From a phage, in the NCBI GenBank assembly GCA_012212665.1, contig GCA_012212665.1_4517.1: a stretch of DNA of 64,000 bases. One strand, written 5' to 3'. The translations under genes and the position numbers were made by a program. Every line of letters starts with the position of its first letter. The stretch's first letter is position 1. Below the pieces are notes generated by a model, which saw only the letters and a program-made list of their open reading frames with translations, was not told the DNA's origin and made no database searches. Positions 1-49,717 of this stretch are shown here, piece after piece.

Positions 1-657
1 ATTATTCGTGTAGGTAATCAGGAAAACGGTTACGACCCACAAGCTGTATATGAATTCCATCATAACGGTACTTTTTATGCTCCAAGCTTACTTAAGAGCA
101 GTAGAGTATCAGCTGGTGGTGGTGACCCTGCATGGGGCGGGCCGTGTATTGTACTTGGAGATAACGATACCGGTTTGCTTTGGGAAAACGATGGTATTTT
201 CAACGCATATGCAAACGGCCAAGGTGTGTTTAGTTTTAGACCTGGTTTAGCTCAGACATTCGGTGATGTTAACTTCCACTGTAATGCAGGTATGTATGTT
301 CGTGATAACATTGATGTTAACGACGTTTATATTCGTTCTGATATTCGTTGTAAGTCGGAAATTAAGCTTATTAAGAACGCTCAAGAGAAATCTAAACTAT
401 TGGGCGGTTATACTTATCTGCTTAAAAACTCTGTTACAGACGAAGTTAAACCGTCCGCAGGTTTAATTGCTCAGGAAGTTCAAGAAGTATTACCTGAACT
501 TGTTTCTGAAGATAAAGAGACCGGACTGCTTCGTTTGAACTATAACGGTATTATTGGTTTAAATACAGCTGCAATAAACGAGCATACAGATGAAATCAAG
601 GAATTGAAATCTGAAATTACCGAATTGAAAGCATTAATTAAATCATTGATAAAATAA
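1..657 (+). CDS. 37: Long tail fibre distal subunit gp37, C-terminal part (5' end lies upstream of the window)
   Basis: Frame 1 is open from base 1 to the stop at 657; C-terminal motif GLIAQEVQEVLPELV followed by a coiled coil resembles tail-fibre intramolecular chaperone domains; immediately precedes gene 38. Confidence 0.6.
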   Translation: MIRVGNQENGYDPQAVYEFHHNGTFYAPSLLKSSRVSAGGGDPAWGGPCIVLGDNDTGLLWENDGIFNAYANGQGVFSFRPGLAQTFGDVNFHCNAGMYVRDNIDVNDVYIRSDIRCKSEIKLIKNAQEKSKLLGGYTYLLKNSVTDEVKPSAGLIAQEVQEVLPELVSEDKETGLLRLNYNGIIGLNTAAINEHTDEIKELKSEITELKALIKSLIK

Positions 658-662
658 TAAAA

Positions 663-676
663 GGGCCTTCGGGCCC
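663..676 (+). other. GC-rich hairpin GGGCC-UUCG-GGCCC between genes 37 and 38
   Basis: Perfect 5-bp stem with UUCG tetraloop directly upstream of the gene 38 Shine-Dalgarno (GGAGG); no U-tract follows. Confidence 0.5.
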
Positions 677-687
677 TGGAGGTTTAT

Positions 688-1467
688 ATGGCAGTAGTAG
701 GAATCCCTGGTTGGATTGGGACTTCAGCCGTTGCTGAAACGGGACAAAGATGGATGACGGCTGCTTCAAGGGAACTTCGTTTAGGAAACCCTTCATGGAT
801 GTCCCAATTCGCGGGCCGTTCAAGAGAAATAATTCACACACTTGGAGCAGACCATAACTTCAACGGTCAATGGTTCCGAGATAGATGTTTTGAGGCAGGT
901 AGTGCACCTATAGTGTTTAATATCACCGGAAATTTGGTATCATATAGTAAAGATGTTCCATTATTCTTTATGTATGGCGATACGCCAAATGAATATGTTA
1001 CTTTGAATATTCATGGTGGAGTTCATATGTGGGGACGAGGTGGTAACGGTACTGTAAACGGAAACCCAGGCACTAATGGTGGCGATGTAATCCAAAATGA
1101 TATCGGCGGAAGACTTCGTATTTGGAACTATGGTGTTATTGCATCAGGCGGTGGCGGAGGTGGTGCAGTGTCATTACAGAATAGCTGGGCGCCAAATGCT
1201 ACAGCAGGTGGCGGTGGTGGTAGACCATTTGGCATCGGCGGAGGTGGCGTTAATTGGCCGGGTGGTAATGCTAGTTATGACGCCCCGGGCGGGGCCGGTT
1301 ACACTTCCCAATTCGGCGGAGGCAATGGCGGTGATGCTGGAGGTCGTGGCGGAGATGGATGGGGTAATCACTTATCTAGATCTGGCGGTGGTGCTCCTGG
1401 CAGAGCAGTATTCGGAAGTTCACCGTCATGGGGTGCTACAGGCACAATCTACGGCTCCTGGATTTAA
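688..1467 (+). CDS. 38: Tail-fibre adhesin gp38, T2-type receptor-recognition protein with glycine-rich motifs
   Basis: 259 aa with multiple poly-Gly blocks ([30 protein letters not shown]) typical of T2-like gp38 adhesins; follows gene 37; GGAGG Shine-Dalgarno. Confidence 0.65.
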
Positions 1468-1485
1468 ACGATAATACCTCTCAAT

Positions 1486-1493
1486 TATAAATA
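1486..1493 (+). promoter_or_regulatory. Late promoter (TATAAATA) upstream of holin t
   Basis: Exact TATAAATA about 20 nt upstream of the t start codon; T4 late promoter consensus recognised by gp55. Confidence 0.6.
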
Positions 1494-1512
1494 TTGATAA
1501 ATGGGAGGTAAT

Positions 1513-2172
1513 ATGGCAGCACCAAAAGTATCATTTTCGCCTAGTGATATTTTATTTGGGTTGCTAGACCGCATTTTCAAAGATAACGCCTCTGGAAATA
1601 TTCTTATTTCAAGAGTTGCTGTTGTAGTTCTTTTGTTCCTAATGGCACTAATATGGTACAAAGGGAATATTTTTATGGATTATTACGTGAGGTCGAAATA
1701 TGATACTTACACAGAAGTAATTCAAAAAGAAAGAAATACACGATTTGAATCTGCGGCTTTAGAACAACTACAAATAGTCCACGTCACATCAAGGGCGGAT
1801 TTTAGTTCGGTGTATTCTTTCAGACCTAAAAATCTAAATTATTTCGTCGACCTTATTGCGTATGAAGGTAAGTTACCTAGCACAGTAACTGAAAAATCTA
1901 TGGGAGGATTTCCTGTTGATAAAACGACAGCAGAATATTCGGTCCATTTAAGTGGACTTCACTTTACTTCTAAAACAGATTTTGCTTTCTTACCTACCAA
2001 ATCAAAAACTCCGGAACTGGCGTATATGTATAGTTGTCCTTACTTCAATTTGGATAACATATATGCGGGAACTGTTTCTATGTATTGGTATAAGGGATCG
2101 GATGTGCTAAATGAAGAACGCTTGGCTGCAATATGCAACCAAGCAGCAAGGATATTAGGGCGGGCTAAATAA
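1513..2172 (+). CDS. t: Holin t (lysis timing protein)
   Basis: Strong similarity to T4 holin T (MAAP..SFSPSDILFG..RVAVV..FRPKNLNYFVD..MYSCPYFNLDNIYAG); start taken at the second ATG, which has a GGGAGG Shine-Dalgarno. Confidence 0.9.
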   Translation: MAAPKVSFSPSDILFGLLDRIFKDNASGNILISRVAVVVLLFLMALIWYKGNIFMDYYVRSKYDTYTEVIQKERNTRFESAALEQLQIVHVTSRADFSSVYSFRPKNLNYFVDLIAYEGKLPSTVTEKSMGGFPVDKTTAEYSVHLSGLHFTSKTDFAFLPTKSKTPELAYMYSCPYFNLDNIYAGTVSMYWYKGSDVLNEERLAAICNQAARILGRAK

Positions 2173-2445
2173 TTAGTTGTTAGAATACATCGCTAAATGA
2201 CGATAAATATTTTCAAAACCTTCATTGAATTCACTAATCAGTGTTTTCTTTTCTTCGGCAGTTAAATTTGTAATTAGTTTTCTGAACGAATTCTGATTTA
2301 GCTGCCGACCATCTTTTTTAATTCCAATCTCATTCAAGAATCCGATGAAATTTGCTCGGTCTTCAACAATATCTTCCCTAGAGAATTTAATCAAAATAGA
2401 AGCAATAGTAATAATTTCACGTACGATTTCAATGTCTTTATTCAT
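2173..2445 (-). CDS. asiA: Anti-sigma-70 factor AsiA
   Basis: 90 aa, near-identical to T4 AsiA (MNK.I..VREIIT.ASILIKFSREDIVE.RANFI.FLNEIG...NEGFE). Confidence 0.9.
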   Translation of the reverse strand: MNKDIEIVREIITIASILIKFSREDIVEDRANFIGFLNEIGIKKDGRQLNQNSFRKLITNLTAEEKKTLISEFNEGFENIYRHLAMYSNN

Positions 2446-2491
2446 AACGTTTTATTCATTCCACTTAATTGTTAGGAGTATAGTACCATTA

Positions 2492-2707
2492 TCAGTGTTG
2501 ATTGTAAACGGCTTTTTCTACGCTTTTAACGTAATCAATGTAGTCTTCCTGTTCGTACGAGTGTAAGGCTAAGAACGAGGCCAATAGTTCATTATAGATT
2601 AAAGCCTCACGCTCACGTTCGGCCTCTACTACGTTCTGAAGATTATGACTCATATTGTTCCTTATAACTATCAATGTAGTCCTGTATGTCAAAGAACGAC
2701 ATTTCAT
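2492..2707 (-). CDS. Hypothetical small protein
   Basis: ORF of 71 aa in the asiA-motA interval; start uncertain; partly overlaps the neighbouring ORF. Confidence 0.3.
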   Translation of the reverse strand: MKCRSLTYRTTLIVIRNNMSHNLQNVVEAEREREALIYNELLASFLALHSYEQEDYIDYVKSVEKAVYNQH

Positions 2708-2942
2708 ATTCTAGGACATTAAGAGCCCGTTCTTCAGTATAGTCAGAACCAAAGACGATAGTGATTTCACCAGGCTTCATATGATTGAAATCAACGCTAA
2801 AAGGAATACGAGAACATACTTCGTCTGCCATATCTACGATAACACTACGATACACTTCTCGGTTAACCTGATAAAGCTCTGCAAGTTCTTCACATCGAAT
2901 AACAAGTTCAGTGGCAGGATTTTCTTTGATTTTAGTAAACAT
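2643..2942 (-). CDS. Hypothetical acidic protein, possibly Arn-like anti-restriction protein
   Basis: Position next to asiA as for T4 arn; acidic C-terminus (EYEMSFFDIQDYIDSYKEQYES); start taken at an internal Met. Confidence 0.35.
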   Translation of the reverse strand: MFTKIKENPATELVIRCEELAELYQVNREVYRSVIVDMADEVCSRIPFSVDFNHMKPGEITIVFGSDYTEERALNVLEYEMSFFDIQDYIDSYKEQYES

Positions 2943-3025
2943 AGTCTTTACCCTTATGTTTTTGTTTACGCTTAGATTGAAGTTCTGATTTCTTCTTGTC
3001 CTTATGGACAGAAGCCTTATTGAAA

Positions 3026-3244
3026 TCATGTTTTGCTACAAGATTGTTCATAATGATTTATAACCTCATTTAAACATTTATCGGTAAAAGAAAACTTTTT
3101 AGCCACAGAACATTCGATATTGTGTTCTTTCAAATCTTTAGAGTCAGTATAACCCATCTCAGTAATAAAGTGGCGAATTAAAGCTTTATTCTTATCATTA
3201 ACAGAATTAAAATAATCTGCTTTAGAATCAATTATTCTCATCAT
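3026..3244 (-). CDS. Hypothetical protein
   Basis: ORF of 72 aa, minus strand, tightly packed with neighbours. Confidence 0.4.
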   Translation of the reverse strand: MMRIIDSKADYFNSVNDKNKALIRHFITEMGYTDSKDLKEHNIECSVAKKFSFTDKCLNEVINHYEQSCSKT

Positions 3245-3509
3245 CTAATTTCCTTAATTGATATTGCAACGAGCTAATAATTTCTTCGTTCATTTTAATA
3301 TACATGTCACGCAAGAAAGGTTTTAACCCATCACGAATAATTGCTAACGTATCACCTTTACATAAATTAACCAAATAAGGATGGTCTAAAGCATCCCAAC
3401 CAGGCTGATTAGCATACATACCATAGTTTTCTTCCATCATATGATTAAGGCGTTTGATATCTTGGATACGTGATTCAATAGCATCTTTCTGGAGTTGTTT
3501 AATATTCAT
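3228..3509 (-). CDS. Hypothetical protein
   Basis: ORF of 93 aa, minus strand. Confidence 0.4.
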   Translation of the reverse strand: MNIKQLQKDAIESRIQDIKRLNHMMEENYGMYANQPGWDALDHPYLVNLCKGDTLAIIRDGLKPFLRDMYIKMNEEIISSLQYQLRKLDDENN

Positions 3510-4306: not shown

Positions 4307-4939
4307 TCACAGTACGTTAGTTACAAGGGTAATGATTTCTTTGGACACATTAGGGAAGTCAATGTAAGTATATTTACCACCGATTTTAATCTTAACATCA
4401 TTTTCAAGAGAAGTAAACAGCTTTGATTCAGTTTCTGACATGTTGTATGCAAAGATTCTAAGAGCGCCATCTCGTCGAATTTCAATTTGGCGAATGCCTA
4501 GAACTCGTTTAGCGAATCGAACTTCTAAGTTACTACGGTTTTCACCAATTTCTTTAACTTCAACTTTATCTTTAATATTTTCAAAAACAAAGTTCGCTAG
4601 TTCATGCATTTCAGGAGTAACTCCACGTGCTTTTCTGGTGTTACGTTTCTGGAGAAGTTCTGGAGCATTTTCTTGAGCAAATAGGTCTGCAGCTTTTTGG
4701 ATAATATCCATTGCTTCGCCGGTTGCCACAAGTCCATCACCGGATTTTTCGACTAAACCTTTCTTAATCAATACACCAATGTTAGAGTTAACAACTGACG
4801 CATTGTATTCCGCTTCCAGAGCTTCACGGACATTGGCAGCAGTGGTGAAGTTGTTCTTAATGATATAAACCATTATTGCAGCAGTTTTTTCATTCAGAGC
4901 GTTTTCAGAAGCTTTGATGATGTAAGTAACTTTAGACAT
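4307..4939 (-). CDS. motA: Middle-transcription activator MotA
   Basis: 210 aa, N-terminus MSKVTYIIKAS..NEKTA and internal NSNIGVLIKKGLVEKSGDGL match T4 MotA; synteny with gene 52. Confidence 0.9.
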   Translation of the reverse strand: MSKVTYIIKASENALNEKTAAIMVYIIKNNFTTAANVREALEAEYNASVVNSNIGVLIKKGLVEKSGDGLVATGEAMDIIQKAADLFAQENAPELLQKRNTRKARGVTPEMHELANFVFENIKDKVEVKEIGENRSNLEVRFAKRVLGIRQIEIRRDGALRIFAYNMSETESKLFTSLENDVKIKIGGKYTYIDFPNVSKEIITLVTNVL

Positions 4940-4978
4940 TTTATTTCTCCAATTTGGTTGTTTTGTTTTGATAGGTCT

Positions 4979-5007
4979 ATAATATCATGTTTGAAGCACA
5001 TGTAAAC
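4979..5007 (-). promoter_or_regulatory. Early promoter (GTTTAC -35 / TATTAT -10) for motA
   Basis: Minus strand reads GTTTAC-17 nt-TATTAT about 40 nt upstream of the motA start. Confidence 0.55.
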
Positions 5008-5013
5008 TGTTTT

Positions 5014-5052
5014 GTGAGAAAAAAAAATGCACAAAAGGGAGCTTCGGCTCCC
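5014..5052 (-). terminator. Intrinsic terminator downstream of gene 52
   Basis: Minus-strand hairpin GGGAGC-CGAA-GCUCCC followed by UUUUGUGCAUUUUUUUUU. Confidence 0.65.
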
Positions 5053-5128
5053 TAATCATGTTTGTCTAACCAATACAGCCAAATCACTAGTGCAGCTATT
5101 GCACCGAGAAATCCTAAGGCTAGGGCAC

Positions 5129-6454
5129 TCAAAGTGCCTCCAAGTCTTTAGTGTACTCTGTCACAACATCAGTAGACTTCCAATACTCATTTTCTTCTTT
5201 CTTAGCTTTAGCTTCTTCTGCTAGTTTACGTGCTTCGTCAGAAGTGATATGGAAGATGTTAAGACCTACCAATTTATCGATATGTTCTTTATACATTTCG
5301 ATTTGTGCTAGCTCTTCAGTCAAAGCTTTACGAGTCTTGCCTTGAATCACAATTTCGCCACTGATAACTTTTTTGATGAAGTGTGCCTTAGCAAAAGCCA
5401 GTTTAAATGCTTTTTCAGATTCAATGATTTTGTTATCAATACGTTTCTGAACGTAAGTCTTACGGACTTCAACAAAATCTTTGATTAAGTCCACTACGTT
5501 ATCGTAGACCGTTAATTTACCCTTTTCATTAATCACTGTGATGTTTTGTGAACGACGTTCGATGAGACTAAAATCTTTCATGGTTTTTTCATGACGTAGC
5601 TCTTCATCATCAGGAAGCGAGTACTCTTTACGGAACTTCACCTTAAACCCAAAACCGTGTTCACCACAATCATCTTCCCATGAGATTAGACCTTTGTCTT
5701 CCAACGGGTCAAGAACCTTACTCACATACGTTTCACGGTCGAATTTATATGGGATTTCAGTTATCTGCATTTGAGTGCGAGATGTGAACTTATATGTTCC
5801 GTGAATCTCATAACGCCCATCAACTTCATGCACTTCACCGCGGAATTCCGGGAATTCAACTTTTGGTTTAGTGACATTTTTACCTTGAAGAGCTTGTAAT
5901 ACAGCCTTTTTGACCGATTTAAAACTATGAGGCAGAATATTTGTTGCGTAACCGGTTGCAATACCAGAGACACCGTTCAAAAGAACTGTCGGAATAATAG
6001 GAAGATAGAATTTTGGTGGAACGTGTTCTTTATCTTCATGAGCTGGAGCATATTCGGTATCTTTATAGACATTATAGAAATTTTTGCTTACACGAGCAAA
6101 AATATAACGAGATGCTGCAGCTTTTTGGACTGTTCGAGAACCAAAGTTGCCTTGACCATCTAATAGTGGATAGTTGTTATTCCATGTGTTAGCCATCAAT
6201 GCACCTGCATCTTGTGCAGAAGATTCACCATGGTGATAACCTAAATCTGCAACACCGCCTGCAATTGACGCAAGTTTATGAAATTTTTCTTTATTACCAC
6301 GAGCCAAATCTAATGCACGATGAACCACAAAACGTTGAACCGGCTTAAATCCATCAATCATGTTTGGGATTGCACGGTTTTCAACGGTGTACATAGCATA
6401 TGCTAAGGCTTCGTTATCAATAATACTTTTTAGATTACGAGAATTCAATTGCAT
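5129..6454 (-). CDS. 52: DNA topoisomerase II medium subunit gp52 (GyrA-like)
   Basis: 441 aa; topoisomerase II DNA-cleavage core similarity (GFKPVQRF.., LLDGQGNFGS, active-site region); T4 synteny motA-52. Confidence 0.9.
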   Translation of the reverse strand: MQLNSRNLKSIIDNEALAYAMYTVENRAIPNMIDGFKPVQRFVVHRALDLARGNKEKFHKLASIAGGVADLGYHHGESSAQDAGALMANTWNNNYPLLDGQGNFGSRTVQKAAASRYIFARVSKNFYNVYKDTEYAPAHEDKEHVPPKFYLPIIPTVLLNGVSGIATGYATNILPHSFKSVKKAVLQALQGKNVTKPKVEFPEFRGEVHEVDGRYEIHGTYKFTSRTQMQITEIPYKFDRETYVSKVLDPLEDKGLISWEDDCGEHGFGFKVKFRKEYSLPDDEELRHEKTMKDFSLIERRSQNITVINEKGKLTVYDNVVDLIKDFVEVRKTYVQKRIDNKIIESEKAFKLAFAKAHFIKKVISGEIVIQGKTRKALTEELAQIEMYKEHIDKLVGLNIFHITSDEARKLAEEAKAKKEENEYWKSTDVVTEYTKDLEAL

Positions 6455-6458
6455 ATTT

Positions 6459-6596
6459 TCACCATATTAATGAACGAATAACCATTATAACATCTGAAAT
6501 GAAAAGCACTACTTGGATTAGTCCAAACATCACACCGTAGTACAGAATCGTAAACAACAAGAGCCCGAAGGCTCCTGCTAAGATTTTCTTAATCAT
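6459..6596 (-). CDS. Small hydrophobic peptide (about 45 aa)
   Basis: Unannotated ORF below the 60-aa cut-off (MIKKILAGAFGLLLFTILYYGVMFGL...); occupies the T4 ac/stp position between gene 52 and ndd. Confidence 0.3.
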   Translation of the reverse strand: MIKKILAGAFGLLLFTILYYGVMFGLIQVVLFISDVIMVIRSLIW

Positions 6597-6734
6597 TACT
6601 CGCCTTTTAACACGTTAAGAAGAGCTAAGACCGCTAAGGTACCTTGTGATACGGCCTGTTGAAATACCGTTGTTTCGCCTGTAACTAAAGTGTTAACGAA
6701 TAAAAACGACCAACACAACAATGCAATAATCCAT
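6597..6734 (-). CDS. Small hydrophobic peptide (about 45 aa)
   Basis: Unannotated ORF (MVSWIIALLCWSFLFVNTLVTGE...), stop adjacent to the start of the next small ORF. Confidence 0.3.
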
Positions 6735-6794
6735 GATACCATTTTAATTACCTCACAAATAAATTAAAGGCCTAACTTAATAGGCCTGTATAAA

Positions 6795-7241
6795 TTAATA
6801 ACTCTGCAGAATGAATTTGAAATTATCAGCCAGAAGACGGTTCATTTCGGTGAGTGTTTGATATTCTGATGTATGATTGCGAGTGAATGCCAGAGCCAAT
6901 TGTCCTTTACCATAGCCAGTAGTCAGGGGTTTCATGTTCTTAGCTGCAACAAAGATTACATCGTATTCAATATTGTTAGTGCCCATGGTACGGGCGAGTT
7001 GTGAACGGCCTTGACGAATGTGAGAAAGAATTGCATCCAACCCTTGTTTAGAACGTTGACGACCTACAAAGAATCGTGCTGCCACTTGTCGCCAGTCAGA
7101 TGAACCTTTAACAAAGAAGTAAAAACCTTCACGAGAACGAAACTCTTTAGAAACTTCAGAACCGTATTCACCGTTACGAACTACTGCAACAACTTCACCG
7201 CCAACTGCCAGAAGGTCTTTACGAGTTAAATATTTGGACAT
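6795..7241 (-). CDS. ndd: Nucleoid disruption protein Ndd
   Basis: 148 aa; strong similarity to T4 Ndd (GFYF.V....RFYVGNQRSKQG..A.LSHIRQ.RSQLART...[41 protein letters not shown]). Confidence 0.85.
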
Positions 7242-7285
7242 GCTAATTTCCTCAATTGATTAATGTTTTTGTAATCCATGAGAGC

Positions 7286-7314
7286 ATTATACTCTGCTCT
7301 CAAGAGTTTGTACA
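7286..7314 (-). promoter_or_regulatory. Early promoter upstream of ndd
   Basis: Minus strand TGTACA-17 nt-TATAAT; a near-identical block recurs at 51952..51980. Confidence 0.45.
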
Positions 7315-7317
7315 ATT

Positions 7318-7518
7318 TTATTCGGCCATATCAGAACGTTCAAAAAGCTCTTCAACAGTTAAACATTCAGTGTCATCCTCGATAAAGAATCGGGTCCAAC
7401 ACGTTGGGGCGATGCAGTTATGAGTTTGTCCAGCTATAGAAGCTACACGAATAAGCTGCTGTCCATTATTCAGGACAAATTTTTCACCAATTTCAACATC
7501 TTTAAAAAGCTTAGCCAT
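7318..7518 (-). CDS. Hypothetical protein
   Basis: ORF of 71 aa; start placed at the second ATG, which has a GAGGAA Shine-Dalgarno; promoter immediately upstream. Confidence 0.4.
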   Translation of the reverse strand: MAKLFKDVEIGEKFVLNNGQQLIRVASIAGQTHNCIAPTCWTRFFIEDDTECLTVEELFERSDMAE

Positions 7519-7547
7519 TTTTGTATTCCTCATGTTTAAGTAGGACT

Positions 7548-7577
7548 ACTATACCATAATCCTACTGTGTTGTAAAC
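7548..7577 (-). promoter_or_regulatory. Early promoter, copy 1 of a perfectly duplicated 38-bp promoter block
   Basis: Minus strand GTTTAC-18 nt-TATAGT with TGG extended -10; block 7541..7578 is identical to 8053..8090. Confidence 0.55.
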
Positions 7578-7769
7578 AATTAAATTACATTAAAATATGT
7601 TAAAGCCAACCATGTTCCAGTGAACGAACATGCAATGTAAAAAACCGTATCACAAAATGTTCTTAGTACAATAAGAAGTGCATTTTTCATAAGTACCTCA
7701 ACACAATTGAAAATATTATACAAATCATTGGGATACTAAGCAACCATATTCCTATCCACATTTTAGAGC

Positions 7770-8033
7770 TCATATCTCAACTTCCGTGAGTTCCATATAT
7801 CCTTTGTTGATAACCTCTTTAAGGTCTTTAGAAAGAATAACACCAAAATGGTCGTTCATATGTCCATTAACTAAACGAGTTATTTCGGCTTCAGATGACA
7901 TATAAGGCACGTCTGAGTCCCAATGAGATAGACCTAAATGGGTATAAATCATCCCTTCGTCATCTGCCGTGTTGTACATTGAAACAAATTCGCCTGTTAC
8001 TTTATGTTTTGCGTAGAAAAATTTAAATTTCAT
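7770..8033 (-). CDS. Hypothetical protein
   Basis: ORF of 87 aa with AGAGGA Shine-Dalgarno; preceded by promoter copy 2. Confidence 0.45.
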   Translation of the reverse strand: MKFKFFYAKHKVTGEFVSMYNTADDEGMIYTHLGLSHWDSDVPYMSSEAEITRLVNGHMNDHFGVILSKDLKEVINKGYMELTEVEI

Positions 8034-8059
8034 GGTGTTATCCTCTTTTAGATAGGACT

Positions 8060-8089
8060 ACTATACCATAATCCTACTGTGTTGTAAAC
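8060..8089 (-). promoter_or_regulatory. Early promoter, copy 2 of the duplicated 38-bp block
   Basis: Identical to 7548..7577; GTTTAC -35 and TGgTATAGT -10. Confidence 0.55.
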
Positions 8090-8101
8090 ACTTTTATGAA
8101 A

Positions 8102-8659
8102 TTAAAGATGAAGATACCATCCGTTGTAGTTGCTCTTGCGGACGATTTTCTTTAGGTCTTCATGGTCTCCCACGAACTTTATAGAATAAGAGAAGACGTC
8201 AGGTGAGGTTTCTTTGACATTCAATATAATAATACAGTCAGCGACTCGATGATTCAGGAAGGGCCCTATGTTGATTCCGTTGCCGCCTGGATAATCACCA
8301 CTGTATCCTGTTGTAACAGAAATCCATTTAGAATCCATCTGATGTGTCTTGACTTCTACACGAATTCCACAATATTTGGGATGGGCTAACACATCCCATG
8401 CATATGTGTACGGGTCTTCTACGTCTTCATTACCTTTATTAACATATCCGTCTAGCCAATTTGCTACTACATACTCTGCAAAGACTGCAACCTTACAACG
8501 TCGAACTACATCTTCTTTGTTTTGGTCTGGATTTTGGCTCAGGGAATACCGAGCGGTGTCAGCAATCTTCACTTTCATTTCACTAGTCAAAAACTCATTC
8601 GACAGGATAAATGTCGGAAGATTCTTCAGTCTCAACAGTCCCAAGTTCGTCTTTACCAT
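8102..8659 (-). CDS. Hypothetical protein, possibly DenB-like (endonuclease IV position)
   Basis: ORF between ndd and rIIB as for T4 denB; start ambiguous (M1 at 8722, M22 at 8659, M49 at 8578); no motif confirmed. Confidence 0.35.
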   Translation of the reverse strand: MVKTNLGLLRLKNLPTFILSNEFLTSEMKVKIADTARYSLSQNPDQNKEDVVRRCKVAVFAEYVVANWLDGYVNKGNEDVEDPYTYAWDVLAHPKYCGIRVEVKTHQMDSKWISVTTGYSGDYPGGNGINIGPFLNHRVADCIIILNVKETSPDVFSYSIKFVGDHEDLKKIVRKSNYNGWYLHL

Positions 8660-8879
8660 AGATACCTCTGATGTGTAGTTCACCAAAATAAATGCGGTCT
8701 CCTTCTTCAAGATATTCTGCATCTACAGGTGGGATTTCAATAACAACTTCGTCGCATTCTAACCAGCCGTAGTGTGCATCACCAGGATGTTTTACCAATT
8801 TAGCACAATAAACTGATTTACACTTATGATGACCACGAAGATTAGCAATTTTGGATTCTGATACGTCAAATGGATGAAT
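8595..8879 (-). CDS. Hypothetical protein
   Basis: ORF in the rIIB-denB spacer; start placed at an internal Met; overlaps the preceding ORF depending on start choice. Confidence 0.35.
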   Translation of the reverse strand: MHPFDVSESKIANLRGHHKCKSVYCAKLVKHPGDAHYGWLECDEVVIEIPPVDAEYLEEGDRIYFGELHIRGIYGKDELGTVETEESSDIYPVE

Positions 8880-8894
8880 CATAATTACCCCTAA

Positions 8895-8919
8895 AGAAAA
8901 AAAGGGGACCGAAGTCACC
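8895..8919 (-). terminator. Putative weak terminator downstream of rIIB
   Basis: Imperfect UUCG-loop hairpin (GGUGAC-UUCG-GUCCCC, one mismatch) followed by a U7 run on the minus strand. Confidence 0.35.
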
Positions 8920-8924
8920 AATTA

Positions 8925-9860
8925 TTATTCTGCAAATAATTCAGTAACGTCTGAAATTACTTCATAACGACAAGTACGCATCTTAGCATCACCGTAGTCA
9001 ACCGGGATGGATACAACATCGCGTGGATGAACTTTAACTTTCACAACTTTATCTGAGCTTGAACCAAAGTGGCGAATATAAGATTTAGCACAAACGTGGA
9101 GACCGCGAGAACAGGTTTGAGTATCATCGTCGTTAACTCGAGTACGAGGCATTGAAACAACTTTACCTGGGGAGTTATCAAATGTACCACTATAGCAGTC
9201 TAAATAGTCTTTACGAACTACTTTCCACGCATAGAAATACCCATCTTCAGTGATTTCAATATCGTTTGCAACCAAGAAGTCGAATAAACGTTGTACAGCT
9301 TTTTCGCTTGGGTTTTCTAACAGGTTTTCAAGGAACGGCAGATAGAATTTAAAGTCTTCGCCTTTTTCCATAGAATCAATAATACGATTAACCAGTCCTG
9401 AACGAATTTCTATACCTTGATAAAATAAACTACCACCTTCAATAGTAACATTACCGTCAACAAACTTAGTAATAGCTTTCTTGATGTTAATAAGTTCGAC
9501 AGCTTTACTAAGGTTTCCTGCGACCAGATTAGCTTTAATTTCTTCAAAATTTGCATGACTTGATGGGGTCGCATTGTATGCTACGCGTCCTTCAATGATT
9601 GAAATAAATTTAGATGATGCGTTCCATACGATTTCTGGACGATGTCCGCCGATAATAGGTTCATTATTTTCTTGGACTTGTTCTTCGTCTTCAAATTCAG
9701 CGGCTTTCTCTTCGGCTTTAAAATTCTTAACAATCTTACGAAGAGTGTCAGTGGAAATATTGAAGTAATCAGCAATTTCCCGACGGGTCCATTGGCCTGA
9801 TTTAACCAGATCGTAAGCTTCTAACTGTTCTTCTTGAGACAAGCATTTAATATTGTACAT
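8925..9860 (-). CDS. rIIB: rIIB membrane-associated protein
   Basis: 311 aa; N-terminus MYNIKCL and C-terminal block RTRVNDDDTQTCSRGLHVC.KSYIRHFGSS.D.VVKVKVHPRDVVSIP.DYGDAKMRTC.YEVISDV match T4 rIIB. Confidence 0.9.
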   Translation of the reverse strand: MYNIKCLSQEEQLEAYDLVKSGQWTRREIADYFNISTDTLRKIVKNFKAEEKAAEFEDEEQVQENNEPIIGGHRPEIVWNASSKFISIIEGRVAYNATPSSHANFEEIKANLVAGNLSKAVELINIKKAITKFVDGNVTIEGGSLFYQGIEIRSGLVNRIIDSMEKGEDFKFYLPFLENLLENPSEKAVQRLFDFLVANDIEITEDGYFYAWKVVRKDYLDCYSGTFDNSPGKVVSMPRTRVNDDDTQTCSRGLHVCAKSYIRHFGSSSDKVVKVKVHPRDVVSIPVDYGDAKMRTCRYEVISDVTELFAE

Positions 9861-9869
9861 AATGTTTCC

Positions 9870-12083
9870 TTATTTGGCTGCTTCCACAGCCTTCATGAAT
9901 TTAACGATTTGAGCGACTTGTTCTTTAGAAAGAGTACCACGTCGTCCCATGTAGTCTGACACAATATGATAATTGGTTTCGAATTCAATAACCATTTTAT
10001 CATCATTATCGTAAGCATTATCTTTAAGCTTATCGAAAATTTTAGCACACAATTCTAACTTTTTATTCAGTTCTCTGTTAGTAGCACCTGAGAATCGATT
10101 CCATCCCCAACGATTATTTACTGTTGAGAGTTTTGCAAAATCTTTACTGATTTCTTTGTTTTTAGAGCTAAAATACTTACTAAGGAAGTTAAGCTCTTCA
10201 TTACGAGTAATATGATTCAAATAAGGCTGTGCTCTACGACTTGGTGATACATACTCATCATAATCCACTTTATCGATTAGCGTAATATAGTCATTAATTG
10301 ATTTTTCGAACAAGCATTCTACTTCACCAAGTTTACGAACTTTCTTAGCAATCTGTGGACGAACTACAGTGAACTCTTTAATACCTGACAAATCAGCAAT
10401 ACGGGTCAAGAAATTGGAGTCATAGTTCAACCAACCTTTATCTGCGTCAAGACATTCAGCATTAGAACGATTACGAACTATAGCATAACCTTGGATTTCA
10501 TCTGCTTCACTTGCCGGAATAAAGAGGTCTTCTGATACCCAAACATCGTTTTCATTCTTAAAGAATCGATGAGCACTTGGCGATTTAGGACGAGGCTCAT
10601 TAGTCCGTTTCCTGACTTCAATCCATGGCTTAACGATTTGTAAAAGCTCTGAAGTCTTGTACATGTTAATGTTGTCGCCATCAAAGATAACTTTAAGGCG
10701 TTCCAGAAGTTTCATTGCATCTTCGTCTGTAGGGTCAACGAATAGTACACTTTTACCAAAACCGCGTGGAACTTTACCAGTTAATTTAACCTCGTCTTTA
10801 GACATTTCAATTGAATTAAGAGCTCGCATTAATGGAACGCGTCCCTTAACGTCGTCAATAACAATTTCAACGTTTTTAATGTTAATGCCAATCAAACTGT
10901 TAATTGAAATGGTTGTCGTTGAGCTACCACTTTCACGAATACGACGAAGACGAGGGGATTCAACGATATCGTATACGACGCCAAGATTACACCACTCAGG
11001 CCCCATTTTAAAACGTTTGTACAACTCAGAATAAGTTAGTTGTTCTTTAGAGTATTTCAGTGATTCAATATTGGACCCGGCCTTTTCCATGTATTTACGA
11101 GCGGTATAGCCAAGAGAATCAATTTCACGGAACACATGGCGTGGGTATTTACAATCAATCCATTTCTTAGAATCTTCAGCGAACAATTTAGCATCGATTT
11201 CTGCAACACGTTTATGGATATTTGCTACTGTACGTTTATCAAATGACAATGCTTCACGAGACGGGGCTACATCTAGTTCACCCATAGGGAATTTAATATA
11301 AGCTGTAGTGCATCGCGTCATCATCCATGTTTGTTCTTTAATAACACTTCCGATCGGATATACAATACCGCCATAAACAGCCATGATATTACCACGTTCA
11401 CCCCATGGAGCTTCCTTGGCCAAATATACATCGTCAAATTCCGGGAAGTATTTGATATCTTTAACACCACGAACTTCTGCAATATCACCTAGAGGACGCA
11501 TAACATATGCAATTTCGGATGCAAACTTTTCAAAATCTTCCGGGTTAACCGGTACGACTACTTCTACACCCGTACGGTCATCAGGACCCATCTTATCTAC
11601 AAAGGTCGGCTTAATTTGTGGACCCGTGTCATCTTGGTAGATTACGTAACCACGAACTTCACCATTGTGATAAGACGTAAGGTTAAACGTATCGGTATAT
11701 GCTAGCGGAGCTTTAGAGCCGAGTCCGAATCCACCGATGAAATCGTTACTCGATGTTTTAGTTGAAGCAAAATATGAGTTATAGATTCCTGGCTCTTCGT
11801 CATTACCTCTAATGGTGAAATCACTCATACCAGGACCAAAGTCTCGAACTACAAAACGTGGGTCTAAACGACCTGGAGCCTGAACAATAAACTTATCAGT
11901 GCAACCGTTAAGAATTTGTCCATCGATACAGTTTGTAATTAATTCACGTACACAAGCCAATTCTTTGTTTGTATAAAGGTCATTAGACAAAATCTTATAA
12001 ACTTTGCTATTGCCTTGAATAGTGAATGCTGTGCTCTTACCGCCTGAACCAATAATCGTTTCTTTAGCCGTTTCAATAATCAT
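9870..12083 (-). CDS. rIIA: rIIA protein
   Basis: 737 aa; N-terminal region (LYTNK...VRELITN, PGRLDPRFV.RDFGPGMSDF, NDFIGGFGLGSK, GPQIKPTFV..MGPDD) matches T4 rIIA. Confidence 0.9.
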   Translation of the reverse strand: MIIETAKETIIGSGGKSTAFTIQGNSKVYKILSNDLYTNKELACVRELITNCIDGQILNGCTDKFIVQAPGRLDPRFVVRDFGPGMSDFTIRGNDEEPGIYNSYFASTKTSSNDFIGGFGLGSKAPLAYTDTFNLTSYHNGEVRGYVIYQDDTGPQIKPTFVDKMGPDDRTGVEVVVPVNPEDFEKFASEIAYVMRPLGDIAEVRGVKDIKYFPEFDDVYLAKEAPWGERGNIMAVYGGIVYPIGSVIKEQTWMMTRCTTAYIKFPMGELDVAPSREALSFDKRTVANIHKRVAEIDAKLFAEDSKKWIDCKYPRHVFREIDSLGYTARKYMEKAGSNIESLKYSKEQLTYSELYKRFKMGPEWCNLGVVYDIVESPRLRRIRESGSSTTTISINSLIGINIKNVEIVIDDVKGRVPLMRALNSIEMSKDEVKLTGKVPRGFGKSVLFVDPTDEDAMKLLERLKVIFDGDNINMYKTSELLQIVKPWIEVRKRTNEPRPKSPSAHRFFKNENDVWVSEDLFIPASEADEIQGYAIVRNRSNAECLDADKGWLNYDSNFLTRIADLSGIKEFTVVRPQIAKKVRKLGEVECLFEKSINDYITLIDKVDYDEYVSPSRRAQPYLNHITRNEELNFLSKYFSSKNKEISKDFAKLSTVNNRWGWNRFSGATNRELNKKLELCAKIFDKLKDNAYDNDDKMVIEFETNYHIVSDYMGRRGTLSKEQVAQIVKFMKAVEAAK

Positions 12084-12388: not shown

Positions 12389-13489
12389 TTACGCTGTGAA
12401 GATTTTATCCCACATCGCAACAACTGCATCTCGGTTATACTTCTTCCATACGGCTTCAGCACGTTTAACTCGAGCTTCGTATGTGTCAGTGAATTCTAAT
12501 ACAGCTTTTGTGTAAAGCGCAACTACTTCTTTCTTAGGAGTAGAGGAATCAATTTCTACACGCACAGTATCTGGGTCATATTCGAATGTCGCGTGCGGAT
12601 AATCCTTAAAAACTAACTGAATCACAGGGACACCTTTAGAGATGGCTTCAATAGAACTATTCTCTACCGTACCCGTGTCAGGACACGTATTGATAAGTGC
12701 TTTAGCTGTTTTAAGACGTTCCATGATTTCACTGTGTGGAGCATCAATAATAACAGGATACTTAGCCGGTGGTGCCCATTTACTAGGACAGTATCCTGCA
12801 CCATTTTCGCCTAGTGCTTTAATCGCTTCAAGAGCAACATCAGTACGACGCATTTTAGTGTCATAACGTTGTGCACTAATAATCAGATCAGTCGCCGGAA
12901 GAACTTCAGGTTTCTCATTCAAACAAATAACCGGATAATCTTCGGCTTCAAACAACGGATTTGCTCGCCAATAATCATAATCAATTTTGTCAGTCAGACC
13001 TGAAGTCATATAACAATATTTGCGTTCAAATTCACGGAAGGCTTTAGTAGGAGCATAACTCTTACCACCGTTCTTATGAATTTGAATAGTCTGGTCCCAA
13101 ATTTGAACAATGCCACGAGATACCGGTTCAAATGGTGTTGCCATAAAATTCTTATGAACTTTAGAGAGACCTGCGTCTTTAATTGCCTGAACGGTTAGTT
13201 TGGTCGGTTCCATTGTAACAACGAAATCGTACTCATTAATGCCGGCTAGTTCAACAATCTTACGAGCCATAGTATAACTCATACCTAGACTGAATTTAGT
13301 CAGATGACCAACAGGATGATGATTAACCTTCCAATCACCAAATGTGTCATTATCAAAACCGATATAATCAATATCGGCACCGATAGAAACTAAATATTTC
13401 AACACATTTAAATGTACTGCTTCAAGACCACCTTGTACACGTTCAGGATTAAATGGGACTGCACGAGATGGGATAAACATAACTTTCAT
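12389..13489 (-). CDS. GT-B fold glycosyltransferase (GT4-like), candidate DNA sugar transferase
   Basis: 366 aa; C-terminal motif TGTVENSSIEAISKGVPVI resembles the E-x7-E / EAxxxGxPVI signature of GT4 glycosyltransferases; lies between rIIA and gene 39. Confidence 0.6.
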   Translation of the reverse strand: MKVMFIPSRAVPFNPERVQGGLEAVHLNVLKYLVSIGADIDYIGFDNDTFGDWKVNHHPVGHLTKFSLGMSYTMARKIVELAGINEYDFVVTMEPTKLTVQAIKDAGLSKVHKNFMATPFEPVSRGIVQIWDQTIQIHKNGGKSYAPTKAFREFERKYCYMTSGLTDKIDYDYWRANPLFEAEDYPVICLNEKPEVLPATDLIISAQRYDTKMRRTDVALEAIKALGENGAGYCPSKWAPPAKYPVIIDAPHSEIMERLKTAKALINTCPDTGTVENSSIEAISKGVPVIQLVFKDYPHATFEYDPDTVRVEIDSSTPKKEVVALYTKAVLEFTDTYEARVKRAEAVWKKYNRDAVVAMWDKIFTA

Positions 13490-15397: not shown

Positions 15398-15412
15398 AAA
15401 GGGCCGAAGCCC
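15391..15412 (-). terminator. Intrinsic terminator overlapping the MotA box
   Basis: Minus-strand hairpin GGGC-UUCG-GCCC followed by UUUUUUGCUUU, directly after the stop of the upstream ORF. Confidence 0.6.
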
Positions 15413-15835
15413 TTATTTAAATTTAATTTTCTGAAGTGCATCAATTGCAGCCAAACGCCCTTGTTCACTTTTAACCGTAATGACCACATCACCTGATACG
15501 ATCACTGAACCATCAACAAATTCTATAGAGCCTTTTTTGAAATCGACAGCTGTATCTGATTCCGGAACTTCTTCAAAGAATTTAAATTCTGCACCATAAA
15601 TCAGAATATCACCTTGCATACTAATGATTGTACGTCCAGGTCCATCGGTTTCAGCGGCAATCATTGAAACACCGTAGCCAATCATCTCTTCTACAATAAA
15701 ATCTCTTGATAATAAAACTGTATGCAGAGTAGTGTTAAGACGTTTACCAGTTGTATTAAGAATTCTCAAGAAATTATCTTCTTGGCCTTTGATAATACGA
15801 TATTTCTTACCAACTTCAAAACCTTTAAAAGCCAT
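15413..15835 (-). CDS. Hypothetical protein
   Basis: ORF of 140 aa upstream of gene 39. Confidence 0.5.
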   Translation of the reverse strand: MAFKGFEVGKKYRIIKGQEDNFLRILNTTGKRLNTTLHTVLLSRDFIVEEMIGYGVSMIAAETDGPGRTIISMQGDILIYGAEFKFFEEVPESDTAVDFKKGSIEFVDGSVIVSGDVVITVKSEQGRLAAIDALQKIKFK

Positions 15836-24820: not shown

Positions 24821-24846
24821 CGAAAAAAGGAATCCCGAAGGATTCC
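24821..24846 (-). terminator. Intrinsic terminator downstream of soc
   Basis: Minus-strand hairpin GGAAUCC-UUCG-GGAUUCC followed by UUUUUUCG. Confidence 0.65.
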
Positions 24847-24855
24847 TTAAATTAT

Positions 24856-30440: not shown

Positions 30441-30447
30441 CCCGAAA

Positions 30448-30463
30448 GGAGACCGAAGTCTCC
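30448..30463. terminator. UUCG-tetraloop hairpin downstream of gene 41 (terminator-like, strand ambiguous)
   Basis: GGAGAC-CGAA-GUCUCC; a T-run follows on the plus strand and UUUCGGGG on the minus strand. Confidence 0.4.
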
Positions 30464-30469
30464 TTTTTA

Positions 30470-31921: not shown

Positions 31922-32263
31922 TTAAAAGAATTTAAATTTTTTCTTGGTTCGTTCATTAAAAGCTTGTTGTACCTGCATTGTAACACATTTTTCAACATGT
32001 GGTGCAAGTTCTGCTTTTCTGTCCTGGTCAAGAACTGCAAAGTCCATTACGATTTTACCATCAACCCAATCTAGTTTTGTAATATAGACTATATGATGGG
32101 AACCATCTTCAAGTGTAATCAGAATCTCTTGAATGACATTTTCCATTGCTGAACGGATAATTTTAAGAGATTCATTAAACACTCGTTCTTTGCGAATGTC
32201 TTCCCCTTCCGAAGAAGGGGATTCATCAACGATTTCTAGATTTAAATCATCGAGATTATTCAT
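31922..32263 (-). CDS. 40: Head vertex assembly protein gp40
   Basis: About 113 aa from internal Met MNNLDDLNLEIVDES; position between 41 and uvsX. Confidence 0.55.
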   Translation of the reverse strand: MNNLDDLNLEIVDESPSSEGEDIRKERVFNESLKIIRSAMENVIQEILITLEDGSHHIVYITKLDWVDGKIVMDFAVLDQDRKAELAPHVEKCVTMQVQQAFNERTKKKFKFF

Positions 32264-42889: not shown

Positions 42890-42907
42890 TCCAAATGGGA
42901 CCGAAGT
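42890..42907 (-). promoter_or_regulatory. Hairpin upstream of gene 43 (candidate translational operator)
   Basis: Minus-strand AUGGGAC-UUCG-GUCCCAU, about 55 nt upstream of the gene 43 ATG, between regA and 43. Confidence 0.35.
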
Positions 42908-42916
42908 CCCATTGCT

Positions 42917-49522: not shown

Positions 49523-49544
49523 AAAAGGAACTCCGAAGAGTTCC
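49513..49544 (-). terminator. Intrinsic terminator overlapping the MotA box
   Basis: Minus-strand hairpin GGAACUC-UUCG-GAGUUCC followed by UUUUUUGCUUU. Confidence 0.6.
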
Positions 49545-49717
49545 TATCCACATAGTACACCGTACAGAGGCTCATTTGGACTTTTAAATCGAATGGGCTT
49601 GTACGTAATAGTTCCTTCGGCTTTAGCTTTATCATAAGACTCTTTAAAACGTCTCATTCTTTCTGCTTTGCCTTTACGGATTTTATCGAAATTTTCAGAA
49701 GTCGGGATGTTCATCAT
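49544..49717 (-). CDS. Small hypothetical basic protein (57 aa)
   Basis: Unannotated ORF with GAGAGGTG Shine-Dalgarno-like sequence; its stop abuts the terminator hairpin. Confidence 0.3.
   Translation of the reverse strand: MMNIPTSENFDKIRKGKAERMRRFKESYDKAKAEGTITYKPIRFKSPNEPLYGVLCG

Follow-up and report, generated by a model that had tools for sequence, protein, structure and literature searches.

The window (the whole stretch of phage DNA that was analyzed, 64,000 nucleotides of contig GCA_012212665.1_4517.1) opens within gene 37 and continues on the same strand, through a short spacer containing a stem-loop, into a complete gene 38 that ends at position 1467. The features at this locus, including the predicted domains of the two gene products (gp37 and gp38), are as follows:

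1-657, plus strand: 3' end of gene 37, cut by the start of the window; frame 1 is open for 218 codons, with the stop codon at 655-657
1-336, plus strand: predicted mature fiber tip of gp37 (its last 112 residues) and putative carrier of gp38, based on alignment to S16 gp37 (chain 6F45_A)
337-657, plus strand: Peptidase_S74 intramolecular-chaperone and self-cleaving domain of gp37, 106 aa plus stop codon (Pfam PF13884)
662-677, plus strand: C(UUCG)G stem-loop in the spacer between genes 37 and 38, with a perfect 6-bp stem and a TTCG loop (AGGGCC-TTCG-GGCCCT)
678-682, plus strand: Shine-Dalgarno sequence GGAGG of gene 38, read from the sequence, 5 nt before the ATG at 688
688-1467, plus strand: gene 38 open reading frame, exactly 259 aa
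688-825, plus strand: gp38 aa 1-46, N-terminal attachment domain predicted to dock on the gp37 trimer (Pfam Gp38_N), with Trp residues W9, W22, and W37
826-1023, plus strand: gp38 aa 47-112, conserved central (beta-helix) part, within the PF05268 match and aligned to 9V85 and 6F45_D
1024-1467, plus strand: gp38 aa 113-259 plus stop codon, glycine-rich motifs and hypervariable receptor loops (predicted polyglycine-II sandwich), based on a Gly content of 35% and on column entropy

The gene order 37-38-t-asiA is that of T2, RB69, and T4, and asiA and other early genes are transcribed from the minus strand toward the 37-38 region. Based on a comparison of 37-38 spacers, the GGAG of gene 38 is kept in most relatives. 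The late-promoter motif TATAAATA is absent from the 37-38 interval, which means that transcription of gene 38 depends on read-through; the two genes are probably cotranscribed. Two alternative-frame open reading frames within gene 38 (1097-1474 on the plus strand and 1174-1371 on the minus strand) were read as by-products of stop-free runs of GGN codons. Neither an Rfam scan at gathering cutoffs nor a tRNA scan, each run over the whole window, found anything.

Pfam analysis matched gp38 to two families: GP38 (PF05268; 4e-83, 279 bits against a cutoff of 25) over aa 47-259, covering the whole 218-position profile, and Gp38_N (PF21721; 8.1e-21, 74.2 bits against a cutoff of 25) over aa 1-42. The protein also aligned to the solved structures of PP01 gp38 (9V85; E = 2.9e-73, aa 39-258) and S16 gp38 (6F45_D; E = 2.1e-48, aa 8-259), and to T2 gp38 (GenBank protein id: YP_010073898) over its full length with 49% aa identity (E = 1e-49). 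The T2 system has the same architecture, both Pfam domains, an S74-type gp37, the same gene order, and a UUCG hairpin between genes 37 and 38; however, the beta-helix part and the loops of T2 gp38 have diverged from those of the protein studied here. A single-sequence AlphaFold2 model of gp38 (mean pLDDT 31, pTM 0.17) was unusable as a fold model; a three-domain fold, consisting of an attachment domain, a beta-helix, and a polyglycine-II sandwich, is predicted by homology to the solved adhesins. These comparisons support 688-1467 as encoding a T2/T6/S16-type gp38 adhesin, the putative primary receptor-binding protein of this T-even-like E. coli phage. Location at the fiber tip and a role in host range have been shown in T2, T6, PP01, S16, RB51/RB68, and CM8/EV240 swaps (PMC12892980, PMC6851490, PMC3157838, bioRxiv 10.64898/2026.04.02.716166), and by homology gp38 of this phage would likewise occupy the fiber tip of the virion.

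Some related records imply a different role, as they label the orthologue "long tail fiber assembly chaperone" (CAU_ECP01 and Shf125875) or "distal long tail fiber assembly catalyst" (RB69 and KMB38). According to such labels, gp38 would aid the folding of gp37, as in T4, and would be absent from the virion, leaving gp37 to bind the receptor. However, these are T4 names transferred by gene number, and the T4 and RB69 records themselves state that "gp38" of the T2 type is the adhesin, a protein unrelated to that of T4. T4 gp38 (GenBank protein id: NP_049864) is 183 aa long and unrelated in sequence, having in common with this gp38 only the gene name, the place between genes 37 and t, and an upstream UUCG hairpin; BLASTP detected no similarity between the two proteins (best E = 2, over 14 residues), and T4 gp38 matched no Pfam family. 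Direct comparison thus ruled out a T4-type chaperone, a role to which we assign next to no probability, whereas similarity to adhesins crystallized on the gp37 tip is strong and extends over the full length. The earlier note had proposed a T2/T6-type adhesin following gp37, to be checked by asking whether gp38 lies closer to the T4 chaperone; both Pfam models, the two structural alignments, and the identity to T2 bear the proposal out, and gp38 is far closer to its T2 than to its T4 namesake.

The identity of the partner protein points in the same direction. The gp37 fragment aligned to S16 gp37 (chain 6F45_A) with an E value of 8.5e-32, the SDxRxK motif and the S74 domain included, and its orthologue is labeled "long tail fiber distal subunit" in the PECP20, RB69, and AugustSocin records. 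Pfam analysis identified PF13884 (9.5e-13) at aa 113-168 of the fragment. The SDxRxK motif, here SDIRCK, is invariant in 17/17 aligned gp37 C-termini; the predicted catalytic residues are Ser113 (codon 337-339) and Lys118 (codon 352-354), and self-cleavage is predicted from the family to occur between nt 336 and 337. T2 gp37 also has a Peptidase_S74 domain, whereas T4 gp37 has none and ends in Collar and Phage_fiber repeats, with its own receptor-binding tip. By domain content, the partner gp37 is therefore of the T2/S16 kind, unlike that of T4; with an S74 chaperone of its own and no T4-type receptor-binding tip domains, it further argues against gp38 as an assembly chaperone.

Within the attachment domain of gp38, W9, W22, and W37 aligned to Trp residues in S16 gp38 and in 15 of 16 aligned proteins. 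In the 6F45 structure, the attachment-domain Trp residues plug pockets of gp37 (PMC6851490). The name of the beta-helix domain follows PMC12892980.

Gly accounts for 51 of the 147 residues of aa 113-259. The runs comprise one of six residues (aa 154-159), one of five (174-178), one of four (184-187), and two of three (210-212 and 233-235); besides these longer runs, the region has nine GG pairs and a conserved C-terminal IYGSW motif. When 16 T-even gp38 sequences were aligned, Gly columns of this region were invariant or nearly so, and mean column entropy was 0.60 bits for Gly versus 1.44 bits for non-Gly positions; the conservation of the Gly blocks and the variability of the segments between them are therefore measured, not merely apparent. 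The earlier note had described a 259-aa gp38 with poly-Gly motifs split by variable segments, which agrees with the length of the open reading frame, the Gly runs, and the entropy values. It had also suggested that these variable segments are the likely determinants of specificity, and this is consistent with the conservation profile and with published experiments in which inter-Gly segments set specificity (PMC3157838, PMC12892980, bioRxiv 10.64898/2026.04.02.716166). Five loops were mapped from PP01 via EC121, using residues that exactly match the PP01 loop definitions:

1051-1065, plus strand: loop A, aa 122-126
1174-1203, plus strand: loop B, aa 163-172
1243-1257, plus strand: loop C, aa 186-190
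1300-1314, plus strand: loop D, aa 205-209, which holds Q208 (CAA, 1309-1311)
1360-1380, plus strand: loop E, aa 225-231

Based on these features and on what is known of the family, assembly might proceed as follows. The S74 domain at the C-terminus of gp37 would serve as an intramolecular chaperone for trimerization of the protein and would then be released by self-cleavage at the conserved Ser113/Lys118 (SDIRCK). Judging from the 6F45 alignment, aa 1-46 of gp38, with W9, W22, and W37, would dock on the exposed gp37 tip, such that a gp38 monomer would cap the trimeric gp37 of the distal long tail fiber. The Gly-rich motifs (aa ~113-240) may pack as a rigid polyglycine-II lattice, which would display the five variable loops for contact with an outer-membrane porin.

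The most likely receptor of this gp38 is OmpF, because its receptor domain closely resembles those of RB69, RB51, and AugustSocin (0-3 substitutions) and has Gln at the switch position. Over aa 47-259, there is one difference from RB69 gp38 (I48V), and it lies outside the loops. In the RB68/RB69 proteins (257 aa), the residue aligned with Q208 is number 206. RB69 and RB51 require OmpF (PMC3157838), and OmpF is the primary receptor of AugustSocin/Bas38 (BASEL supplementary table). Residue 206 is the HVS3 switch residue in RB51, where Q206 directs the phage to OmpF and L206 to OmpW (bioRxiv 10.64898/2026.04.02.716166); the public RB68 record has Gln rather than Leu at this residue, and thus the OmpW allele of the preprint is absent there. 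OmpF may not suffice, because RB69 also needs FhuA and a full LPS core (Trojet et al.).

We also considered that the primary receptor might be OmpC, which PP01 and S16 use, or a different porin (OmpW, OmpA, Tsx, or FadL). Among the solved structures, PP01 gp38, a binder of OmpC (PMC12892980), gave the best score, E. coli O157:H7 was the growth host of the nearest isolates, PECP20 and CAU_ECP01, as it was for PP01, and specificity is fragile, as Q206L alone moves RB51 from OmpF to OmpW. PP01 gp38 (9V85), which uses OmpC of O157, belongs to the same family and has the same predicted fold and Gly motif positions, based on the EC121 row of the alignment; however, the PP01-type protein EC121 has only 64% overall identity to this gp38, and none of the five receptor loops has the same sequence, with some also of another length, so that a different receptor is expected and OmpC is less likely. 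S16 gp37 and gp38 (6F45) both align to their counterparts here, but S16 gp38 is more distant than the PP01, T2, and RB69-group proteins and has other loops, a Salmonella host, and OmpC as its receptor. By comparison, the receptor domain matches those of the OmpF users RB69 (1 aa) and AugustSocin (3 aa) and retains Gln at the OmpF/OmpW switch position; a primary receptor other than OmpF is thus quite unlikely.

Modular exchange at the tail-fiber locus is textbook knowledge, and the relatives of this phage place it within that pattern. The gp38 of PECP20 (GenBank protein id: WKM80873.1, "receptor-recognizing protein") is identical at 259/259 aa. The 37'-38-t-asiA stretch of PECP20, CAU_ECP01, and CCU7 is 99.8-99.9% identical in DNA sequence, with the same gene order, and these genomes have the same Mosigvirus backbone, being ~98% identical elsewhere with small indels. 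RB69 gp38 (GenBank protein id: AAP76154) is one residue apart over aa 47-259, a region that includes the beta-helix, all Gly motifs, and all loops, whereas its attachment domain differs at 23/46 positions and its gp37 tip also differs (40/91 aligned residues identical, compared to 88% identity for JS98 and 84% for VR26). RB68 gp38 (the OmpW variant of the RB51/RB68 group) is two residues apart over aa 47-259. By contrast, aa 1-46 are 100% identical to JS98 and AugustSocin.

AugustSocin (Bas38), a Tequatrovirus, has a gp38 (GenBank protein id: QXV76296) identical at 256/259 residues, including the entire N-terminal domain, with the substitutions A54E, I183L, and R220W; the two phages share a gp37 tip type, and their 37'-38-t DNA is 98% identical. 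However, the AugustSocin backbone is that of another genus, and outside the tail-fiber cassette the DNA is 58-79% identical. Within the 37-38-t-asiA cassette, identity is 85-99.7%; for the 3' end of gene 37 together with 38-t-asiA, it is 95-99.7%. Across 16 phages, the gp37 tip type covaries with the gp38 N-terminal type, and the arrangement is therefore a known kind of modular mosaic. Based on these sequence comparisons, gp38 is a mosaic that combines a gp37 tip and attachment module of JS98/VR26 type with a receptor module of RB69 type in a Mosigvirus genome; the modules join at about residue 46-48, and the JS98/VR26 side is Dhakavirus/Gaprivervirus-like.

The spacer between the two genes contains a hairpin (662-677) with a predicted energy of -12.3 kcal/mol in isolation. 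Folded in a 61-nt context, it did not exceed chance (z = -1.3; 21/200 shuffles fold as well). It is, however, kept in every one of the 11 distinct 37-38 spacers that were compared, that of T4 among them, and compensatory double changes occur in 3/6 stem pairs across the 11 distinct orthologous spacers. The case for a real hairpin is thus comparative, because folding energy alone is not beyond chance: the "strong hairpin" that the earlier note placed between genes 37 and 38 is present, with this caveat on the word "strong". The window contains nine such C(UUCG)G hairpins versus 0.3 expected, and their loop orientation mostly tracks local gene direction. The hairpin at 662-677 has the G+C-rich stem, the C-G closed UUCG loop, the intercistronic position, and the covariation that define the T4-type element, and its loop reads UUCG on the plus strand only. 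The T4-type C(UUCG)G intercistronic hairpin is reportedly tied to work by Tuerk et al. in 1988.

An alternative function for the hairpin is that of a terminator, which would end late transcripts of gene 37 or, read on the minus strand, would catch antisense early transcripts before they reach the late tail-fiber genes. On the plus strand, the terminator-like scan found no T-run after the stem, which adjoins the gene 38 Shine-Dalgarno sequence; together with the missing late promoter and the consequent need for read-through into gene 38, this led us to reject a plus-strand terminator. In the minus-strand reading, TTTATTATTT comes after the stem, the hairpin passed the terminator-like scan, and early genes such as asiA are read toward it. 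However, the UUCG loop faces the plus strand, as expected from the orientation of similar hairpins relative to local genes, and asiA is already followed immediately by a stronger terminator-like hairpin (2145-2119). We therefore regard a terminator as doubtful; the hairpin most likely functions as an mRNA-stabilizing or 3'-end-protecting structure.

We are highly confident that the locus as a whole is best explained by a tip adhesin with OmpF as its receptor, a modular mosaic origin, and an mRNA-stabilizing hairpin. A more speculative extension, which we put forward tentatively and consider somewhat improbable, is that the cassette is recent and still spreading between genera, that its OmpF loops may be usable on O157:H7, and that the hairpin may also serve as a minus-strand terminator shielding late genes. 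Nothing here is new at the level of the protein, as the exact gp38 is already deposited and annotated in GenBank (PECP20), and the gp38 family, its architecture of Gly motifs and hypervariable loops, its structure, and its receptor logic have all been published. The value for annotation is that the label of this gp38 should be T2-type adhesin, in place of the "assembly chaperone" that several related records still give, and its near-identity to tested phages allows the prediction of OmpF as its receptor. The locus is a further case of the shuffling of gp38 attachment and receptor modules among T-even genera, which is relevant to host-range engineering.

The order of genes at this locus, 37-38-t-asiA, is the T-even order and is the same in the annotated T4, T2, RB69 and PECP20 records; across the remainder of the window, Mosigvirus genomes, PECP20 and ATK47 among them, match at ~98% identity.

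Features of the locus
1-657, +: 3' end of gene 37; frame 1 open for 218 codons, stop at 655-657
337-354, +: SDxRxK motif of gp37, S113-D-I-R-C-K118, from an alignment of 17 C-termini
662-677, +: stem-loop between genes 37 and 38, AGGGCC-TTCG-GGCCCT; perfect 6-bp stem, TTCG loop
678-682, +: Shine-Dalgarno sequence of gene 38, GGAGG
688-1467, +: gene 38; ATG at 688, ORF of 259 codons
1486-1493, +: late-promoter motif TATAAATA in the 38-t spacer, ~20 nt upstream of the holin start
1513-2172, +: t, the holin gene, 3' of gene 38
2173-2445, -: asiA, past t on the opposite strand
about 1-3500: shared distal tail-fibre cassette, gene 37 to asiA plus a few small ORFs (upstream part at 4800-11200 in PECP20)

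The earlier note had proposed that gp38 is a T2-type adhesin and not a T4-type chaperone, and this reading holds because gp38 is not closer to the T4 protein: it aligned with T2 gp38 over the full length (49% identity, E 1e-49), whereas the best BLASTP alignment with T4 gp38 covered just 14 residues (E=2). The 259-aa protein matched the entire Pfam GP38 profile (PF05268; 4e-83) as well as Gp38_N (PF21721; 8.1e-21), and T4 gp38 matched neither model. Two crystal structures also aligned with it, the receptor-binding domain of PP01 gp38 (9V85; 2.9e-73) and S16 gp38 (6F45_D; 2.1e-48; residues 8-259), and the location of the window protein in the virion is predicted from this homology. Single-sequence structure prediction gave a pLDDT of 31, which is too low for use. 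Using tblastn, we identified gp38 at ≥99% identity in 12 phage records; the PECP20 protein is 100% identical and is annotated as “receptor-recognizing protein.” Orthologues in PQ572755, KM407600, AY303349, OR525701 and MH992122 are labelled “long tail fiber assembly chaperone” or “distal long tail fiber assembly catalyst,” a name inherited from the unrelated T4 gp38.

Alignment of 16 gp38 proteins from Tequatrovirus, Mosigvirus, Dhakavirus, Gaprivervirus and Karamvirus phages bore out the described architecture of glycine motifs split by variable segments. Glycine accounts for 51 of the 147 residues at aa 113-259, where mean column entropy is 0.60 bits for Gly and 1.44 bits for non-Gly positions, and the GRGG, GGGGGG and GGGGGRPFG blocks vary little or not at all. 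EC121 gp38 has exactly the residues by which the PP01 receptor loops are defined, and transfer via EC121 placed these loops at aa 122-126, 163-172, 186-190, 205-209 and 225-231. S16 gp38 is anchored on gp37 by three Trp residues (PMC6851490), and their counterparts here are W9, W22 and W37. Two alternative-frame ORFs overlie the glycine-rich half of gene 38 (1097-1474, +, 125 aa; 1174-1371, -, 65 aa) and are most simply explained as a consequence of GGN/NCC codon runs that lack stops.

A Peptidase_S74 (intramolecular chaperone) domain spans aa 113-168 of the gp37 fragment (9.5e-13); T2 gp37 has this domain too, whereas T4 gp37 has C-terminal Collar and Phage_fiber repeats in its place; S16 gp37 in 6F45 also aligned with the fragment (8.5e-32). 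In the S74 family, a Ser/Lys pair catalyses self-cleavage directly ahead of the Ser, and the SDxRxK motif is invariant in all 17 aligned C-termini. By homology, cleavage is predicted before S113; it would free the C-terminal 106 aa and uncover the gp38-capped tip.

Residues 1-46 of gp38 are identical to those of JS98 and AugustSocin (Bas38) and differ from VR26 at one position but from RB69 at 23 of 46, whereas residues 47-259 show one difference from RB69 (I48V), two from the RB68 record and three from AugustSocin. A parallel split occurs in the gp37 tip, which shares 88% identity with JS98 and 84% with VR26 and matches RB69 at 40 of 91 aligned residues. Judged from these sequences, the attachment module (gp37 tip and gp38 N-terminus) and the receptor module have separate histories; this is the modular design that Trojet et al. 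(PMC3157838) described. With PECP20 standing in for the window, comparison with AugustSocin, a Tequatrovirus, gave 85-99.7% identity between approximately the gene 37 start and window position ~3500 and 58-79% outside, which indicates a recent exchange of the entire distal-fibre cassette across genera. Elsewhere, PECP20 has a 321-bp unit flanked by two 57-nt direct repeats (12623-12679 and 12944-13000; 86% alike, each with a TATAAT-like box); the small ORF PECP20_077 lies in this unit. The window, in the region of about 4931-5016, lacks the unit and has a single repeat copy; this looks like an indel through recombination between the repeats.

OmpF is the primary receptor of Bas38 (BASEL supplementary table), and RB69 and RB51 need OmpF plus FhuA and a full LPS core (PMC3157838). 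RB51, with Q206, uses OmpF, and Q206L redirects it to OmpW (2026 preprint, bioRxiv 10.64898/2026.04.02.716166). The equivalent residue is Gln208 (nt 1309-1311), inside mapped loop D, and together with the near-identity to RB69 and Bas38 it makes OmpF the best-supported receptor prediction, by homology, for the window gp38. OmpC would fit the match to PP01 gp38 and the O157:H7 hosts of the nearest isolates, but none of the loops matches its PP01 counterpart, which makes OmpC less likely. The same preprint ascribes the OmpW specificity of RB68 to Leu at gp38 residue 206, whereas the public record (NC_027979) has Gln; either stocks differ or the record is older than the change.

The hairpin between genes 37 and 38, called strong in the earlier note, is present and conserved, but its energy is unexceptional: it folds alone at -12.3 kcal/mol, and in its 61-nt context z = -1.3 against shuffles. 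All 11 distinct spacers compared keep it, including that of T4 with its unrelated gene 38; compensatory double changes occur at three of the six pairs, and the loop is UUCG in most copies. We take it to be a T4-type intercistronic UUCG hairpin of the mRNA-stabilising class, reportedly described by Tuerk et al. in 1988. Across the window there are nine perfect C(UUCG)G stem-loops, their stems 6-11 bp long, versus 0.3 expected in shuffled sequence.

C(UUCG)G stem-loops by strand of the UUCG
+: 662-677, 5036-5053 (the latter among minus-strand genes)
-: 6555-6580, 15399-15414, 24827-24848, 30445-30466
-: 32202-32221, 42894-42913, 49526-49545

The stem at 662-677 adjoins the gene 38 Shine-Dalgarno sequence, with no T-run after it on the + strand. 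A terminator pattern does fit when the hairpin is read on the minus strand, making a minus-strand terminator a minor rival; we read its role, predicted by homology, as mRNA stabilisation. Only three copies of the late-promoter motif TATAAATA occur across the 64 kb, where chance predicts 7.6, and the window scan found none between genes 37 and 38. The nearest copy, T4-type and the sole one on the + strand, lies only at 1486-1493, 5' of t; therefore, gene 38 is probably transcribed by read-through out of gene 37. On the minus strand, the 3' end of t, just downstream of asiA, contains a 12-bp hairpin (2145-2119) with a T-run behind it, a putative terminator of the early asiA transcript that is antisense within the holin gene. 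T4, T2, RB68 and EC121 have a hairpin at this position with another stem sequence; RB69 and AugustSocin have the window's stem.

The window gp38 itself is not novel, and the structure, modularity and receptor logic of its family are already published. Useful results are limited to a receptor prediction and to a correction of annotation, as a number of related records still read “assembly chaperone.”
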